NCBI RefSeq assembly: GCF_988243305.1
Contig: NZ_OZ547136.1
Reading direction: 5' to 3' (one strand)
Length of the DNA stretch: 64,000 nt
A program made the translations under genes and the position numbers. Below the pieces are notes generated by a model. That model had not been told where the DNA came from. It saw only the letters and a list, made by a program, of their open reading frames with translations, and ran no database searches. Shown piece after piece: positions 673 through 44,322 of the stretch (positions are counted from its first letter, which is position 1; every line of letters starts with the position of its first letter).

Positions 673-1773
673 TTACTTCGCGGTCAGTAATACGCCGCAC
701 TCCATATGGTGCGTGTAGGGGAACTGATCAAACAGAGCCAGACGTTCAACCTTGTGCGTCTGGCTTAATGTTTCCAGATTCTTGCATAACGTTTCCGGAT
801 TGCAGGAGATATACAGAATACGTGGATACGCCTGCACCATTTTCTCGGTTTCACCGTCCAGACCGCTGCGTGGTGGGTCGACAAAAATGGTTTCGCACTG
901 ATAACTCTTTAAATCGATCCCTTGCAGGCGGTTAAACTCGCGTACGCCATTCATCGCCTGAGTAAATTCTTCTGCCGCCATACGAATAATTTGTACGTTA
1001 TCAATATGGTTAGCGGCAATGTTGTATTGCGCGGCAGCGACCGACGGCTTAGCGATTTCGGTGGCTAATACCCGATCAAAATTGCGCGCCAGTGCTAATG
1101 AAAAGTTACCGTTGCCGCAGTACAGCTCCAGTAAATCGCCTTTTGAGCCTTTGGTTACGTCCAGCGCCCATTCCAGCATCTGAATATTCATCGCCGCGTT
1201 CGGCTGGGTAAAGCTGTTTTCTACCTGACGGTAGATCATCTCTTTCCCTGCGACCGGCAGACGTTCATCGATGTAATCTTGATCCAGCTCGATTTTGGTT
1301 TTCGTTGCCCGACCAATCAGATGCACATTCAGATTCTGCGCTCGCAGTGCATCGCGCAGGGCTTCCGCTTCCTGACGCCACTCATCATCCAGCTTCTTAT
1401 GGTACAGCAGGGAAACCACCGCCTGATTACTCAGCGTGGTGAGGTAATCAATCTGGAACAACTTGTGGCGCAGAACGGGATTATTACGCACACCCGCAAT
1501 CATCGCCGTCATCAACTGGTTGATAAGTTCACTGGCGGCGGGGAAGCTATCCACGCGGATGCGGCTTTTGGTTTGTTGATCGAAAATGATGTGATACAGG
1601 TCATCGCCATCGTGCCAGATGCGGAACTCCGCACGCATCCGGTAATGACTGACCGGCGAGCGAAACACTTCCGGAACCAGGTCAGAAAACGGTGCCATCA
1701 TACTTTGCAAACGTACCACTTTTTCGGCTAACTGCGCTTCATACTGTTCTGTTGGAAGGTGTTCGGGGGTCAT
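673..1773 (-). CDS. trmA: tRNA (uracil54-C5)-methyltransferase TrmA, 366 aa
   Basis: ORF track; product [19 protein letters not shown]... recognised as TrmA; convergent with yijD. Confidence 0.9.
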
Positions 1774-1899
1774 GATGTATCCTGAAAAATTAAAGTACGC
1801 GGCGATTGTAGGGATTGCTCATCAGATGTCCAGATCTTGATGAATTCCTATTTGTGAGCTACGTCTGGACAGTAACTTGTTACAACCTGTAGCATCCAC

Positions 1900-2141
1900 T
1901 TGCCGGTCCTGTGAGTTAATAGGGAATCCAGTGCGAATCTGGAGCTGACGCGCAGCGGTAAGGAAAGGTGCGATGATTGCGTTATGCGGACACTGCCATC
2001 TGGTGGGAAGTCATCATCTCTTAGTATCTTAGATACCCCTCCAAGCCCGAAGACCTGCCGGCTAACGTCGCATCTGGTTCTCATCATCGCGTAATATTGA
2101 TGAAACCTGCGGCATCCTTCTTCTATTGTGGATGCTTTACA
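1900..2141 (+). promoter_or_regulatory. Cobalamin (B12) riboswitch / btuB leader
   Basis: ~240-nt structured 5' leader directly upstream of btuB start; sequence matches the btuB leader as I recall it (e.g. GCCGGTCCTGTGAGTTAATAGGGAATCCAGTGCGAATCTGGAGCTGACGCGCAGCGGTAAGGAAAGGTGCGATGATTGCG, B12-box-like GCCACTG region near RBS); boundaries approximate. Confidence 0.7.
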
Positions 2142-3980
2142 ATGATTAAAAAAGCTTCGCTGCTGACGGCGTGTTCTGTCACAGCCTTTTCTGCTTGGGC
2201 ACAGGATACCAGCCCGGATACTCTCGTCGTTACTGCTAACCGTTTTCAACAGCCTATCAATACTGTTCTGGCTCCGACGGATATTGTCACGCGTGAGGAT
2301 ATCGAACGCTGGCAATCCAGAACCGTTCTGGATGTGATGCGCCGCTTACCTGGTGTTGATGTCGCACAGTATGGCGGTATGGGACAGAGTTCTTCTCTTT
2401 TTATCCGGGGAACCGAATCGAAACACGTTCTGGTGTTAGTTGATGGAATTCCAGTAGCACGCCCTGGTATATCGAATAGCTCAGACATTGACCAGATCCC
2501 AGTCTCGCTGGTCCAGCGTATTGAATATATTCGTGGTCCACGCTCGGCTGTTTATGGCTCTGGTGCGATTGGTGGTGTTGTCAACATCATCACTATGACG
2601 AATGAAGAGCGTTCGCAAATTAACTCCAGTATCGGTTCGAAAGGCTACCAACAGTACGATGGCACATACCGCCAGCGTTTTGGAGATACGGTGGTGACTG
2701 CTGCAGGGGCTTATCAGACGACCAAAGGTTTCAATGTTCAGCCACATTCAAGTTATAGCGGAGATGGCGATCGCGATGGTTATCGTAACAAGCTGTTCTG
2801 GGGGGGAATTGAGCACAAATTTAACGATCAATTTGATGGTTACTTCCGTGGCTACGGTTATGCCAGTAATGCCGATTACGACCAAGGGAACTGGGGATAT
2901 GATGGCGGCAATGATGAGCATCAAAATTACACACAGTCGTGGGATACTGGATTGCGTTTTAATTCGGGAGTCTACTCTTCGCAACTGGTGGTAAATTATC
3001 AGCGCATTAAGGACTACAACTACAGCAGTCTGACTGGGCGTTACGCATCAGGTTATACACTTGATGATATGGAGCAACGTTACATCCAGTGGGGTAACAA
3101 TGTCATTGTTGGGCATGGTGCTATCAGCGCAGGAGCAGACTGGAAACAGGAAAAACTGATGTCTTTTGGCGCTAATGGCACGGATAACTACAAGCGTAAT
3201 AACACTGGGCTTTATCTGACCGGGCAGCAGCAAATTGATAACATCACACTAGAAGCCTCTGGTCGTGAGGATCACGATGGCCAGCTAGGTTGGCATGGCA
3301 CTTGGCAAACGGCAGCAGGGTGGCAGTTTGTTGATGGTTACAAAGTAACGCTTTCCTATGGAACTGGTTTCCTTGCTCCTTCGCTTGGTCAACAATTTGG
3401 CGCAGAGCGGTTTGGTATTGCTTCTAACCCTAACTTGAAACCAGAAGAATCTAAGCAATGGGAGGCAGGATTAGAAGGCTTGACAGGTCCTGTTGACTGG
3501 CGATTGTCGACCTATCGCTACAAAATCCAGAACCTGATCGACTACAACAACAATACCTATTTTAACGTTAAATCCGCGACCATTAAGGGCCTGGAATGGA
3601 CGGGTAATTTCACAACTGGTCCTATCGATCATCGTTTAACGTTGCAGTATGTAGACCCCCGTGATGATGAAACTGATCAACAACTCTATCGCCGTGCAAA
3701 ACAGCAGGTAAAATATGAGTTGAGCGGTGAGGTTTACGAGTTGGGGTGGGATGTCACGTATCAGTACATTGGTGAACGATACGATTACGACTATGACAGT
3801 ACCCGTAAGGTGAAAATGGGAGGACTGAGCGTGTGGGATATCGGACTTTCATATCCGGTCACCTCTCATCTGACAGTTCGTGGTAAAATAGCCAACCTGT
3901 TCGACAAAGATTATGAGACAGTCTATGGCTACCAAACTGCAGGACGGGAATACACCTTGTCTGGCAGCTACACCTTCTGA
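2142..3980 (+). CDS. btuB: TonB-dependent vitamin B12 / colicin E / phage BF23 outer-membrane receptor BtuB, 612 aa (divergent allele, see findings)
   Basis: ORF track 2097..3980, start trimmed to [20 protein letters not shown] signal peptide; TonB box [10 protein letters not shown]; C-terminal ...[12 protein letters not shown] with terminal Phe typical of OM beta-barrels. Confidence 0.9.
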   Translation: [612 protein letters not shown]

Positions 3981-4782
3981 ACCACGTCCCACCGTGCTGG
4001 TGTTTGACTCCGGCGTCGGTGGGTTGTCGGTCTATGACGAGATCCGGCATCTCTTACCGGATCTCCATTACATTTATGCTTTCGATAACGTCGCTTTCCC
4101 GTATGGCGAAAAAAGCGAAGCGTTTATTGTTGAGCGAGTGGTGGCAATTGTCACCGCAGTGCAAAAACGTTATCCCCTTGCGCTGGCTGTGGTTGCTTGC
4201 AACACTGCCAGTACCGTTTCACTTCCTGCCTTACGCGAAAAGTTCGACTTCCCGGTTGTTGGTGTCGTGCCGGCGATTAAACCTGCTGCACGTCTGACGG
4301 CAAATGGCATTGTCGGATTACTGGCAACCCGCGGAACAGTTAAACGTTCTTATACTCATGAGCTGATCGCGCGTTTCGCTAATGAATGCCAGATAGAAAT
4401 GCTGGGCTCGGCAGAGATGGTTGAGTTGGCTGAAGCGAAGCTGCATGGCGAAGATGTTTCTCTGGATGCGCTAAAACGTATCTTGCGTCCGTGGTTAAGA
4501 ATGAAAGAGCCGCCAGATACCGTTGTACTGGGGTGTACCCATTTCCCTCTACTACAAGAAGAACTGTTACAGGTGCTGCCAGAGGGAACCCGGCTGGTGG
4601 ATTCTGGCGCAGCGATTGCTCGCCGAACGGCCTGGCTGTTAGAACATGAAGCCCCGGATGCAAAATCTGCCGATGCGAATATTGCCTTTTGTATGGCAAT
4701 GACGCCAGAAGCTGAACAATTATTGCCCGTTTTACAGCGTTACGGCTTCGAAACGCTCGAAAAACTGGCAGTTTTAGGCTGA
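3925..4782 (+). CDS. murI: Glutamate racemase MurI, 285 aa
   Basis: ORF track 3913..4782, start trimmed to MATKLQDGNT...; overlaps btuB 3' end by 56 nt as in K-12. Confidence 0.9.
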   Translation: MATKLQDGNTPCLAATPSEPRPTVLVFDSGVGGLSVYDEIRHLLPDLHYIYAFDNVAFPYGEKSEAFIVERVVAIVTAVQKRYPLALAVVACNTASTVSLPALREKFDFPVVGVVPAIKPAARLTANGIVGLLATRGTVKRSYTHELIARFANECQIEMLGSAEMVELAEAKLHGEDVSLDALKRILRPWLRMKEPPDTVVLGCTHFPLLQEELLQVLPEGTRLVDSGAAIARRTAWLLEHEAPDAKSADANIAFCMAMTPEAEQLLPVLQRYGFETLEKLAVLG

Positions 4783-6695: not shown

Positions 6696-6780
6696 CCTTA
6701 AAGAAGCGTTCTTTGAAGTGCTCACACAGATTGTCTGATAGAAAGTGAAAAGCAAGGCGTCTTGCGAAGCAGACTGACAC

Positions 6781-6856
6781 GTCCCCTTCGTCTAGAGGCC
6801 CAGGACACCGCCCTTTCACGGCGGTAACAGGGGTTCGAATCCCCTAGGGGACGCCA
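6781..6856 (+). tRNA. gltT: tRNA-Glu (anticodon UUC) in 16S-23S spacer
   Basis: GTCCCCTTCGTCTAGAGGCCCAGGACACCGCCCTTTCACGGCGGTAACAGGGGTTCGAATCCCCTAGGGGACGCCA, 76 nt. Confidence 0.95.
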
Positions 6857-10045: not shown

Positions 10046-10165
10046 TGCCTGGCGGCCTTAGCGCGGTGGTCCCACCTGACCCCATGCCGAACTCAGAAGT
10101 GAAACGCCGTAGCGCCGATGGTAGTGTGGGGTCTCCCCATGCGAGAGTAGGGAACTGCCAGGCAT
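10046..10165 (+). rRNA. rrfB: 5S ribosomal RNA (rrnB operon)
   Basis: TGCCTGGCGGCC...GGGAACTGCCAGGCAT, 120 nt. Confidence 0.95.
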
Positions 10166-10179
10166 CAAATTAAGCAGAA

Positions 10180-10207
10180 GGCCCAGTCGGAAGACTGGGC
10201 CTTTTTG
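10180..10207 (+). terminator. rrnB intrinsic terminator (single hairpin + T-tract)
   Basis: GGCCCAGTC-ggaa-GACTGGGCC followed by TTTTTGCG. Confidence 0.7.
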
Positions 10208-37024: not shown

Positions 37025-37025
37025 G

Positions 37026-37167
37026 AGCCTGGTCCATCAGGCTATTTTATTTGCCATTTTGAGGCCGGACAGCGCGGAAAAACCGGAGCGTACACGTAGT
37101 ACGTGAGGATTTTGAGCACTGCCCGGCCTCAAACTGCCTTCAACAATTACGCCTGGTGGACCAGGCT
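37026..37167. mobile_element. 142-bp MITE-like palindromic element: 17-bp terminal inverted repeats (AGCCTGGTCCAYCAGGC) flanked by 5-bp direct repeats CTAAG (37021-37025 and 37168-37172)
   Basis: Seen in sequence: left end AGCCTGGTCCATCAGGC, reverse complement of right end AGCCTGGTCCACCAGGC (16/17); internal 11-bp perfect inverted repeat TTTGAGGCCGG / CCGGCCTCAAA and central palindrome CACGTA-G-TACGTG; no coding capacity. Confidence 0.55.
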
Positions 37168-37180
37168 CTAAGGAGCGATT

Positions 37181-40325: not shown

Positions 40326-41714
40326 ATGCAACGTTCAAAAGACACCTTAGCCAAATGGTTAAGCGCGATCCTCCCCGTGGTCATTGTTGGGCTGGTGGGA
40401 ATGTTTGCGGTAACGGTGATTCGTGATTATGGGCGGGCAAGTGAGGCTGACCGTCAGGCATTACTGGAAAAAGGTAATGTGCTCATTCGCGCTCTGGAGT
40501 CAGGAAGCCGCGTAGGGATGGGGATGCGAATGCACCATGTGCAGCAACAGGCGCTTCTGGAAGAGATGGCAGGCCAGCCTGGGGTGTTGTGGTTTGCGGT
40601 CACCGATGCGCAGGGCATCATCATTCTTCACAGTAACCCCGAAATGGTCGGGCGTGCACTCTATTCTCCTGATGAAATGCAGCAGTTAAAGCCAGAGGAA
40701 AACTCCCGCTGGAGACTGCTTGAGGATGCAGAAAAAACGCCTGCGCTTGAGGTCTATCGTTTGTTCCAGCCAATGTCATTGCCCTGGCGGCATGGTATGC
40801 ACAATATGCCGCGCTGTAACGGCAAAGCTGTGCCACAGGCAGAAGCACAACAGGCTATTTTCATCGCCGTTGACGCCAGCGATCTGGTTGCAACCCAGAG
40901 TGGGGAAAAGCGCAATACCCTGATTATCCTCTTCGCCCTGGCGACGGTCTTGCTGGCAAGCGTGTTGTCATTCTTCTGGTATCGTCGCTATCTGCGCTCG
41001 CGCCAGTTGTTGCAAGATGAAATGAAGCGCAAAGAGAAGCTGGTGGCGCTGGGGCATCTTGCGGCAGGTGTTGCCCACGAAATCCGTAACCCACTTTCCT
41101 CGATTAAAGGGCTGGCGAAATACTTTGCCGAACGCGCGCCAGCCGGGGGAGAAGCGCATCAACTGGCGCAGGTGATGGCGAAAGAAGCCGACCGTTTAAA
41201 CCGCGTGGTAAGCGAGTTGCTGGAACTGGTTAAGCCAACGCATCTGGCTTTGCAGGCGGTGGATCTCAACACGCTGATTAACCACTCATTACAGCTGGTA
41301 AGCCAGGATGCAAACAGCCGGGAGATCCAGTTACGCTTTACTGCCAACGACGCGTTGCCGGAAATTCAGGCCGACCCGGACAGGCTGACTCAGGTCCTGT
41401 TGAATCTCTATCTCAATGCTATTCAGGCGATTGGTCAGCATGGCGTGATTAGCGTGACGGCCAGCGAAAGCGGCGCGGGCGTGAAAATCAGCGTTACCGA
41501 CAGCGGTAAGGGAATTGCGGCAGATCAGCTTGAAGCCATCTTCACCCCGTACTTCACCACCAAAGCCGAAGGCACCGGACTGGGGCTGGCGGTCGTGCAT
41601 AATATTGTTGAACAACACGGTGGTACAATTCAGGTCGCAAGCCAGGAGGGAAAAGGCGCAACGTTCACCCTCTGGCTTCCGGTCAATATTACGCGTAAGG
41701 ACCCACAAGGATGA
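40326..41714 (+). CDS. zraS: Sensor histidine kinase ZraS (HydH), 462 aa as called here
   Basis: ORF track; H-box AHEIRNPLSSI, G-boxes DSGKGI / GTGLGLAV; in-frame ATA-CGT-TTT precedes the ATG (see findings). Confidence 0.85.
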   Translation: MQRSKDTLAKWLSAILPVVIVGLVGMFAVTVIRDYGRASEADRQALLEKGNVLIRALESGSRVGMGMRMHHVQQQALLEEMAGQPGVLWFAVTDAQGIIILHSNPEMVGRALYSPDEMQQLKPEENSRWRLLEDAEKTPALEVYRLFQPMSLPWRHGMHNMPRCNGKAVPQAEAQQAIFIAVDASDLVATQSGEKRNTLIILFALATVLLASVLSFFWYRRYLRSRQLLQDEMKRKEKLVALGHLAAGVAHEIRNPLSSIKGLAKYFAERAPAGGEAHQLAQVMAKEADRLNRVVSELLELVKPTHLALQAVDLNTLINHSLQLVSQDANSREIQLRFTANDALPEIQADPDRLTQVLLNLYLNAIQAIGQHGVISVTASESGAGVKISVTDSGKGIAADQLEAIFTPYFTTKAEGTGLGLAVVHNIVEQHGGTIQVASQEGKGATFTLWLPVNITRKDPQG

Positions 41715-43036: not shown

Positions 43037-44322
43037 TTCTGCTCGCGTTCGATAGCGCGCCAGCCGATATCTTTCCGGCAGAAGCAGTCGTCCCAATGGA
43101 TATCGGTCATTAAGGCATAAGCGCGTTTCTGCGCTTCTGCCACAGTATGACCCAGCGCGGTGACGCACAGTACGCGCCCGCCGCTGGTCACTACCTGCTC
43201 GTCATCCGCCAGTTTCGTGCCCGCGTGGAACACTTTGCCGTCAGACACTTCTTCCAGCGGCAGGCCGTGGATCACATCGCCGGTGCGGTAATCGCCCGGA
43301 TATCCACCCGCAGCCATCACCACGCCGAGAGAAGCGCGTTCATCCCACTCGGACGTTTTCTCGTCAAGCGTACCTTCACAGGCTGCCAGGCAGAGCTCAA
43401 CCAGATCGGACTTCATGCGCAGCATAATCGGCTGGGTTTCCGGATCGCCAAAGCGGCAGTTAAATTCGATAACCTTCGGATTGCCCTGTTTGTCGATCAT
43501 CAGGCCCGCGTAGAGAAAACCAGTGTAGGTGTTGCCTTCCGCTGCCATACCTTTCACGGTTGGCCAGATGATACGTTCCATGGTGCGCTGATGAACCCCA
43601 TCGGTCACCACTGGCGCAGGGGAGTAAGCCCCCATCCCGCCGGTGTTCGGTCCGGTATCTTTATCACCTACGCGTTTGTGGTCCTGACTGGTGGCCATCG
43701 GCAGCACATGCTCGCCGTCCACCATCACGATAAAGCTCGCTTCTTCGCCGTCGAGGAACTCTTCGATAACAATGCGATGACCCGCATCGCCAAAAGCGTT
43801 GCCCGCCAGCATATCGTGAACAGCCGCTTCGGCTTCTTCCAGCGTCATCGCGACGATAACGCCTTTACCCGCTGCCAGACCGTCAGCTTTAATGACGATC
43901 GGCGCGCCTTTCTCACGCAGATACGCCAGCGCAGGTTCTACCTCGGTGAAGTTCTGGTATTCCGCCGTAGGGATCTGATGGCGGGCCAGGAAATCCTTGG
44001 TAAACGCTTTCGAGCCTTCCAGCTGCGCGGCACCTGCGGTTGGGCCGAAGATTTTCAGCCCGGCGGCGCGGAAGGTATCCACCACGCCTTTCACCAGCGG
44101 CGCTTCCGGGCCGACGATGGTTAGATCGATCTTTTCGTTTTGCGCGAAATCCAGCAGCGCCGGGATATCGGTTACGCCGATAGCGACGTTTTGCAGTGCA
44201 GGCTCCAGCGCAGTGCCTGCGTTACCCGGAGCAACAAAAACAGTTTCAACCAGCGGCGACTGGGCCGCTTTCCAGGCCAGCGCGTGCTCGCGCCCGCCGT
44301 TACCAATCACTAATACTTTCAT
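43033..44322 (-). CDS. purD: Phosphoribosylamine-glycine ligase PurD, 429 aa
   Basis: ORF track; recognised product. Confidence 0.9.
   Translation of the reverse strand: MKVLVIGNGGREHALAWKAAQSPLVETVFVAPGNAGTALEPALQNVAIGVTDIPALLDFAQNEKIDLTIVGPEAPLVKGVVDTFRAAGLKIFGPTAGAAQLEGSKAFTKDFLARHQIPTAEYQNFTEVEPALAYLREKGAPIVIKADGLAAGKGVIVAMTLEEAEAAVHDMLAGNAFGDAGHRIVIEEFLDGEEASFIVMVDGEHVLPMATSQDHKRVGDKDTGPNTGGMGAYSPAPVVTDGVHQRTMERIIWPTVKGMAAEGNTYTGFLYAGLMIDKQGNPKVIEFNCRFGDPETQPIMLRMKSDLVELCLAACEGTLDEKTSEWDERASLGVVMAAGGYPGDYRTGDVIHGLPLEEVSDGKVFHAGTKLADDEQVVTSGGRVLCVTALGHTVAEAQKRAYALMTDIHWDDCFCRKDIGWRAIEREQN

Follow-up and report, generated by a model that had tools for sequence, protein, structure and literature searches.

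A deeply diverged btuB core between conserved ends in Escherichia coli, probably one class of an ancient allelic polymorphism

How does a gene come to have two ends that match those of a well-known relative and an interior that is only half identical to it? This question is raised by btuB, the gene for the outer-membrane receptor BtuB, in a 64,000-nucleotide (nt) stretch of contig NZ_OZ547136.1 (RefSeq assembly GCF_988243305.1), which we call the window. An initial annotation had described this btuB as a mosaic with ends like those of Escherichia coli K-12 and a strongly divergent interior, consistent with homologous replacement of the receptor core by a foreign allele. Our analyses agree with the mosaic and with homologous recombination in the conserved ends as the route of exchange, but not with the recent import of a foreign allele. 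At least four deeply diverged btuB core classes coexist in E. coli, and the window carries one of them. We consider it likely that these classes represent an ancient multi-allelic polymorphism, in which a core cassette is exchanged via conserved ends and perhaps maintained by selection that targets the receptor.

A divergent btuB core between K-12-like ends

In a protein alignment, residues 1-35 and 571-612 of the window BtuB are the same as those of K-12 MG1655 BtuB, and the limits of the block between them are sharp. The first divergent base, at 2247 (glutamine instead of glutamate at residue 36), directly follows the TonB box, and the last divergent run ends at 3851, 73 nt 5' of the murI start at 3925 and thus just before the btuB/murI overlap, where the initial annotation had placed the 3' boundary. 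A scan in 100-nt windows gives 96-100% identity to K-12 up to position 2199, 0.43-0.76 over 2300-3843 and 0.94-1.00 again from 3844. The interior protein is 50.4% identical to that of K-12 (273 of 542 alignment columns) and the full-length protein 56.5% identical; the earlier estimate that the barrel and loops are about half identical was therefore accurate, as was the K-12 peptide used for comparison.

The flanks are K-12-like, as had been proposed. Identity to K-12 is 97.7% for trmA (99.7% at the amino acid (aa) level; synonymous divergence (dS) 0.106), 99.2% for the 368-nt leader (1774-2141) and 98.1% for murI, and the lengths of the trmA-btuB spacer (368 nt) and of the btuB/murI overlap (56 nt) are equal in the window strain and K-12. 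Outside the btuB block, positions 1-49,790 are 98.4% identical to K-12 and every other 500-nt window is at least 92% identical, so that no second stretch as divergent as btuB is present in these 49.8 kb and the divergence is local. The steep drop in the sliding-window identity plot is confined to the btuB interior, with neither uniformly high identity to K-12 across the barrel nor comparable divergence in trmA and murI.

The product of this mosaic gene is recognizable as BtuB along its whole length. It matches the BtuB equivalog NF007926 (1052.6 bits; cut-off, 836) and TIGR01779 (672.8 bits; cut-off, 599.7) at full length, and its best match among solved structures is E. coli BtuB (1NQE/3RGM), end-to-end, with an E-value of ~1e-212. 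Precomputed annotation assigns the plug (PF07715) and barrel (PF00593) domains to proteins whose interior is 100% identical. The window protein resembles K-12 BtuB (P06129; structures 1NQE, 1NQH, 1UJW and 2YSU) in locus, length class, the Pfam domains of the plug and 22-strand barrel, and the identical signal peptide, TonB box and last 42 residues, yet it is only 50% identical over residues 36-570 and ~34% identical in the predicted loops, with insertions or deletions (indels) in L2, L3, L7, L8 and L10.

Several residues of likely functional importance are retained across this divergence. In the TonB box (DTLVVTA), the D, both V, the second T and the A are invariant across classes, and the first T and the L are conservatively substituted. 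R14 and D316 (K-12 mature numbering), which form the plug-barrel ionic lock (PMC11658791), are invariant or nearly so in an alignment of all classes. The window protein has D179 replaced by N and Q191 by D. Residues D193, D195, Y229, D230 and D241, which we take, following Chimento et al. (2003), to be calcium- and B12-site residues, are likewise invariant or nearly so in the all-class alignment, and they stay fixed inside otherwise variable loops. Judged by these features, the window BtuB would still import B12, and, jointly with the multi-allelic reading as a whole, we think it probable that the window btuB is a functional gene of a minority allelic class.

Classes of btuB in E. coli and in other genera

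A search of 5,426 complete E. coli genomes placed 4,950 in the K-12 class (interior at least 95% identical in nt to the K-12 interior), with ~8.6% of genomes falling outside it. The window class is present at the same locus in 89 genomes, 88 of them with a cassette at least 99% identical to that of the window plus strain EC42405 at 91.3%, and it occurs in several chromosomal backgrounds. A class of 627 aa, which we call O78-3 after E. coli O78 strain 3 (positions 2843-4726 of locus L002), accounts for ~282 genomes; over its full extent it shares ~69% nt identity with the window interior, and its interior protein is 72% identical to that of the window and 51% to that of K-12, with its nearest relatives (84-88%) in the Citrobacter freundii complex and in some records labelled Salmonella. 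A further ~85 genomes, for example E. coli 2020N21-246-1 (hit H167), carry a "75%" class, named for its nt identity to K-12 over the whole length, to which E. coli BtuB proteins that are 79-85% identical to K-12 probably correspond. The window, K-12 and O78-3 classes, the three that were aligned, have the same ends and essentially the same boundaries.

The window class itself has depth inside Escherichia. The sub-variant of EC42405 (bovine, France; positions 2086-3924 of locus L007) differs from the window interior by a dS of 0.41, which exceeds that of its flanks (0.14-0.18), and its 3' junction lies a few bases earlier, suggesting a second, older lineage of the class. Separately, we noted that the K-12-class btuB of E. 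coli EC416 (NZ_AP027404.1, 312230-314912; hit H131) is disrupted by ISApl1 and is thus a natural receptor knock-out.

The split between the classes is old. The proportion of synonymous differences (pS) is ~0.80 both for window versus K-12 and for window versus O78-3, a value that amounts to saturation, so that no distance can be computed between classes, whereas dS in the flanks is ~0.07-0.18 within E. coli. The BtuB interior of the window is 61% identical to that of Yersinia aldovae and 51% identical to that of K-12, and neighbour-joining of the interiors places the K-12 class (together with Enterobacter, Trabulsiella, Silvania and others) outside a group composed of the window class, Yersinia and Serratia. 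These comparisons place the parting of the btuB classes long before that of Escherichia, Salmonella, Lelliottia, Franconibacter and Enterobacter. Within the window class, the ratio of nonsynonymous divergence (dN) to dS is 0.02-0.07, indicating purifying selection.

The same polymorphism is present in other genera. Salmonella enterica has BtuB types of 614 and 618 aa, both abundant in the protein collection, with flanks that are 98-100% identical and interiors that are 36-71% identical; the drop begins ~100 nt into btuB and stops ~130 nt before its stop codon (L069, btuB 2501-4345; L070, 2501-4357). Between Lelliottia sp. and L. nimipressuralis, TrmA is 97% and the BtuB interior 52% identical; the corresponding values are 96% and 52% for Franconibacter pulveris and F. 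helveticus, and 91% and 50% for Enterobacter kpr-6 and E. soli. A 627-aa record labelled Salmonella enterica serovar Saintpaul (L071, GCA_016412205.1) was considered as a third Salmonella class and dropped, as its flanks are only ~80% identical to Salmonella (~75-90% for the flanking genes against the 614- and 618-aa loci); this record was probably assigned to the wrong organism and may be a Citrobacter sequence.

Exchange, possible maintenance and origin of the cassette

Carriers of the window class offer clues to how the core has spread. In strains UPEC132, STEC299 and O170:H18, the single nucleotide polymorphisms (SNPs) in the flanks are those of the B2 strain ABU 83972 to ~20 bp from both junctions, the core of ABU 83972 itself being of the K-12 class. 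A different flank haplotype is found in the window and NT1F10. Among carriers, dS is 0.023 in the interior versus 0.14 in trmA and 0.09 in murI, indicating that the cassette changed backgrounds later than the backgrounds diverged. A repeat search around the block found no meaningful direct or inverted repeats bounding it, and its neighbours are trmA and murI; a mobile cassette moved by site-specific recombination or transposition is not supported on these grounds. Homologous recombination with crossovers in the conserved ends is the best and simplest explanation for movement of the block. Crossovers would occur in the leader, signal peptide or TonB box on one side and in the last ~130 nt, which overlap murI, on the other, and would be blocked inside the core because the alleles there are only 45-75% identical. 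Crossovers limited to the ends would leave flanks uniform up to the cassette within a species, producing sharp and recurring boundaries, and the same exchange would carry the cassette between phylogroups.

The two ends differ in how far their conservation extends. The DNA of the 5' end (2142-2246) is 96-99% identical to that of all E. coli classes and 74-82% identical to that of Citrobacter, Lelliottia and Huaxiibacter, and its SNPs track the strain background rather than the btuB allele; the signal peptide and TonB box are kept across genera in protein but not in DNA. Uniformity of the 5' end in all E. coli classes is expected if recombination within the species homogenizes the flank up to the cassette. 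At the 3' end, positions 3852-3980 are 94-97% identical in nt to Citrobacter, Lelliottia and Huaxiibacter, versus 78-80% for the body of murI, and the last ~126 nt of btuB are near-invariant across Enterobacteriaceae genera and btuB classes, third codon positions included. In comparisons with Citrobacter, Lelliottia, Enterobacter and others, all 18 third positions within the murI overlap are conserved, as are 17-20 of the 24 in the 73 nt before it. Positions 3852-3924 thus show synonymous-site conservation without dual coding, and they may carry signals for murI expression. The 3' segment could serve as a recombination anchor, even across genera.

What might keep several classes in circulation? 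Many phages, and the E-group colicins, dock on BtuB, and the classes would persist for this reason: a rare receptor type would evade phages and colicins adapted to the common type while still importing B12, resulting in negative frequency-dependent selection. In a large screen of E. coli phages, BtuB was used more often than any other outer-membrane receptor, by 41 phages (bioRxiv 10.64898/2026.04.02.716166), and in Yersinia sensitivity to the T5-like phage phiR2-01 varies with small differences in a single BtuB loop (PMC8624392). In one study, resistance to colicins E1, E2, E5 and E7 was seen in C. rodentium (PMC10924462), with a BtuB interior that shares 92% identity with that of the window, although this is circumstantial as other envelope factors differ. 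Selection by phages and colicins on btuB classes is therefore plausible from the literature. The locus also has several of the features expected of trans-species polymorphism: classes older than the species that carry them, segregation in several genera and a sharp peak of divergence between uniform flanks. Long-term balancing selection on whole alleles would fit these patterns better than fast amino acid diversification.

Several points weigh against an ancient, balanced polymorphism. The literature on the agent that would select for rare btuB alleles is circumstantial. The divergence from K-12 is not restricted to exposed parts of the protein: identity is 66% in the plug, 50% in the strands, 45% in the periplasmic turns and 34%, with indels, in the extracellular loops, in a partition of loops and strands that is approximate because strand positions were taken from an AlphaFold2 model of a 26-sequence alignment with a mean predicted local distance difference test (pLDDT) score of 53. 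(For the same reason the model was rejected for fold search and surface mapping and served for rough strand topology only.) Such divergence over plug and strands would reflect age and not specifically receptor-driven selection. The class frequencies, including the 1.6% of the window class, were counted in complete genomes and so carry the sampling bias of such collections. Relatedness to the window class runs from E. coli through Citrobacter and Lelliottia/Huaxiibacter to Klebsiella/Phytobacter, roughly the order expected from descent, but each E. coli class finds its closest counterpart in a different neighbouring genus, and simple shared descent would then require that classes were lost differentially or that some were also transferred horizontally. 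Finally, the low interior dS among carriers, below that of their flanks, fits also with a fairly recent entry into E. coli from an unsampled relative followed by spread.

This last point is the basis of the alternative that survives best, which we nevertheless regard as unlikely: an older introgression from an unsampled lineage about as distant from E. coli as Citrobacter, after which homologous recombination carried the core among E. coli phylogroups, neutrally or with a mild advantage, and no long-term balancing selection acted. The contrast in dS between the carrier interiors and flanks (0.023 versus 0.09-0.14), the low frequency of the class and the difference in nearest genus from class to class, which makes some transfer between genera probable, are all as this explanation would have it. 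However, low internal diversity is expected of a rare balanced allele too, the deep split recurs in Salmonella, with the same boundaries, and in Lelliottia, Franconibacter and Enterobacter, and at least four classes coexist in E. coli; chance would not easily produce this at a neutrally evolving locus.

A recent import, in which a Citrobacter-like or other enterobacterial core replaced a K-12-type core in the recent ancestor of the strain, is improbable. The block is bounded by E. coli-type sequence, and a search for a donor lineage found the closest non-E. coli interior proteins in C. amalonaticus (93%), C. rodentium (92%) and C. sedlakii (91%), followed by Huaxiibacter, Lelliottia and Leclercia (87-88%). 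The Citrobacter proteins belong to the same allelic class, have 612 aa and share synteny with the window, but at the DNA level the interior is only 81-82.5% identical to those of C. amalonaticus and C. sedlakii (dS 1.7-2.0, dN 0.037-0.045), and the 5' end in Citrobacter is of Citrobacter type and that in the window of E. coli type. In the flanks, the corresponding values are 84-86% (dS 1.0-1.1) for trmA and 78-80% (dS 2.0-2.1) for murI. The interior is thus no closer to Citrobacter than ordinary orthologues are, its divergence being at least that of the flanks between the genera, and a recent import from sampled Citrobacter is not supported; among the sampled non-E. coli genes, 81-82.5% was the best nt identity, and no near-identical donor well above flank similarity was found. 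The K-12 class relates in the same manner to the common 614-aa Salmonella type (interior 86% aa identity, dS 2.2; flank dS 1.4-1.5), so that neither class can be called native or foreign. The presence of the allele in 88 genomes with differing flank haplotypes and the dS of 0.41 of the EC42405 sub-variant also stand against a recent event.

Base composition gave no sign of foreignness. GC content at third codon positions (GC3) is 0.46 in the window interior, 0.51 in the E. coli K-12 class and 0.61-0.66 in the Citrobacter homologues; the interior lies below the window-wide mean (0.58, standard deviation 0.08) and near murI (0.47), and no donor-like, host-unlike composition was seen in it. We therefore rejected GC3 as a marker of foreign origin, and it argues solely against an origin in Citrobacter.

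In-place rapid divergence from a K-12-like sequence, under positive selection on the receptor surface, is very improbable. The exposed loops are indeed the least conserved part and carry indels, but the buried plug and the strands are heavily diverged too, pS is saturated next to a flank dS of ~0.1, the same class is found in other genera at 77-93% identity and dN/dS within the class is low. For the same reasons, "diversifying selection" in the sense of fast local amino acid change, which the initial annotation had thought plausible, is not borne out. An assembly chimera or contamination is hardly credible, since the 3-kb region is 100% identical in the independent complete genome NY1601 and 88 complete genomes have, at this locus and with an uninterrupted reading frame, a cassette that matches at 99% or more.

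Returning to the multi-allelic polymorphism, a more far-reaching form of it can be tentatively proposed, although as a whole we lean slightly against it: across the Enterobacteriaceae, the btuB core may be a set of allelic lineages older than the split from the Yersinia lineage, maintained by negative frequency dependence on BtuB-binding phages and E-group colicins and exchanged between strains and even genera with the nearly invariant last ~130 nt, overlapping murI, as an anchor.

Locus features and significance for BtuB as a receptor

The gene order, trmA - cobalamin riboswitch - btuB - murI, is that of K-12 MG1655, and the features of the locus are listed in Table 1. The start of murI was mapped from the annotation of the 100%-identical NY1601 region, in which the counterpart of the window btuB is already public and annotated as BtuB (WP_000591383.1).

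Table 1. Features of the btuB locus in the window.
Feature	Coordinates	Strand	Remarks
trmA	673..1773	-	366-aa open reading frame (ORF); upstream flank, used as control
Cobalamin riboswitch in btuB leader	1887..2076	+	Rfam RF00174, full-length match, 88.8 bits (gathering score 31.5)
btuB coding sequence	2142..3980	+	612 aa plus stop
Conserved btuB 5' end: signal peptide and TonB box, E. coli type	2142..2246	+	Protein same as K-12
Divergent btuB cassette: remaining plug and barrel strands 1-20 with loops	2247..3851	+	Codons 36-570; 45-76% nt identity to K-12
Conserved btuB 3' end: last two strands, C-terminal YTF, stop	3852..3980	+	At most one difference in all E. coli classes
murI (glutamate racemase)	3925..4782	+	Overlaps the last 56 nt of btuB; downstream flank, used as control

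Elsewhere in the window, the next-lowest identities to K-12 are at 40501-41000 (92%) and 43501-44000 (94%), placed by collinearity with K-12 in the zraS and purD region and mild beside btuB. Between hemE and nfi, ~143 nt (37025-37168) have no K-12 counterpart; the ends of this stretch form an inverted repeat (GAGCCTGGTCCATCAGGC ... GCCTGGTGGACCAGGCTC), and it looks like a small intergenic repeat element. The alignment to K-12 is also broken at 6760-6781, in the 16S-tRNA spacer of an rrn operon, and at 10153-10204, just 3' of the 5S gene, which indicates differences in length of ~85-170 nt from K-12.

Allelic polymorphism of surface receptors is a known phenomenon, and the btuB case is a further instance of it. 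E. coli ompC, fhuA and fliC are polymorphic in this manner. The alleles of ompA are another example (PMC9560509). Like these loci, btuB is a core gene that keeps its chromosomal position, its alleles are discrete and divergent and are distributed regardless of strain phylogeny, and its product is targeted by phages and bacteriocins. Unlike in ompA-type loci, the btuB classes differ over the whole plug and barrel and not in a few loops, and the split is deeper than the family and recurs in Salmonella, with the same boundaries, and in several other genera. A study of "segmentally variable genes" found that among BtuB homologues the barrel is variable and the N-terminal hatch and extreme C-terminus are conserved, and suggested pressure from phages and colicins (PMC387263); that study compared homologues between species, without discrete within-species classes, shared boundaries or frequencies. 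One recent paper terms BtuB a "conserved" receptor. A limited literature search turned up no report of discrete within-species classes of btuB, of their shared boundaries or of their recurrence across genera, nor of btuB mosaicism or positive selection, although an earlier description is possible.

The main practical bearing of these findings is on the prediction of phage and colicin host range. BtuB is among the most used phage receptors of E. coli and is the docking site of the E-group colicins, and knowledge of it comes nearly all from the K-12 protein; binding of colicin E and BF23 has been demonstrated for the K-12 type only. On the more far-reaching form of the multi-allelic reading, K-12 BtuB, the sole type studied structurally and functionally, would be one of several receptor "serotypes", and phages and colicins characterized on K-12 would fail to recognize ~9% of E. 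coli. Should cores only ~50% identical to that of K-12 be present in ~9% of E. coli and in much of Salmonella, then host-range predictions, phage cocktails and colicin antimicrobials based on a "conserved BtuB" would miss these strains, and calling the btuB class from genome sequence would be an inexpensive predictor to add. For evolutionary biology, btuB would represent a clean bacterial case of old alleles held between fixed recombination boundaries, in several genera and in a housekeeping gene.

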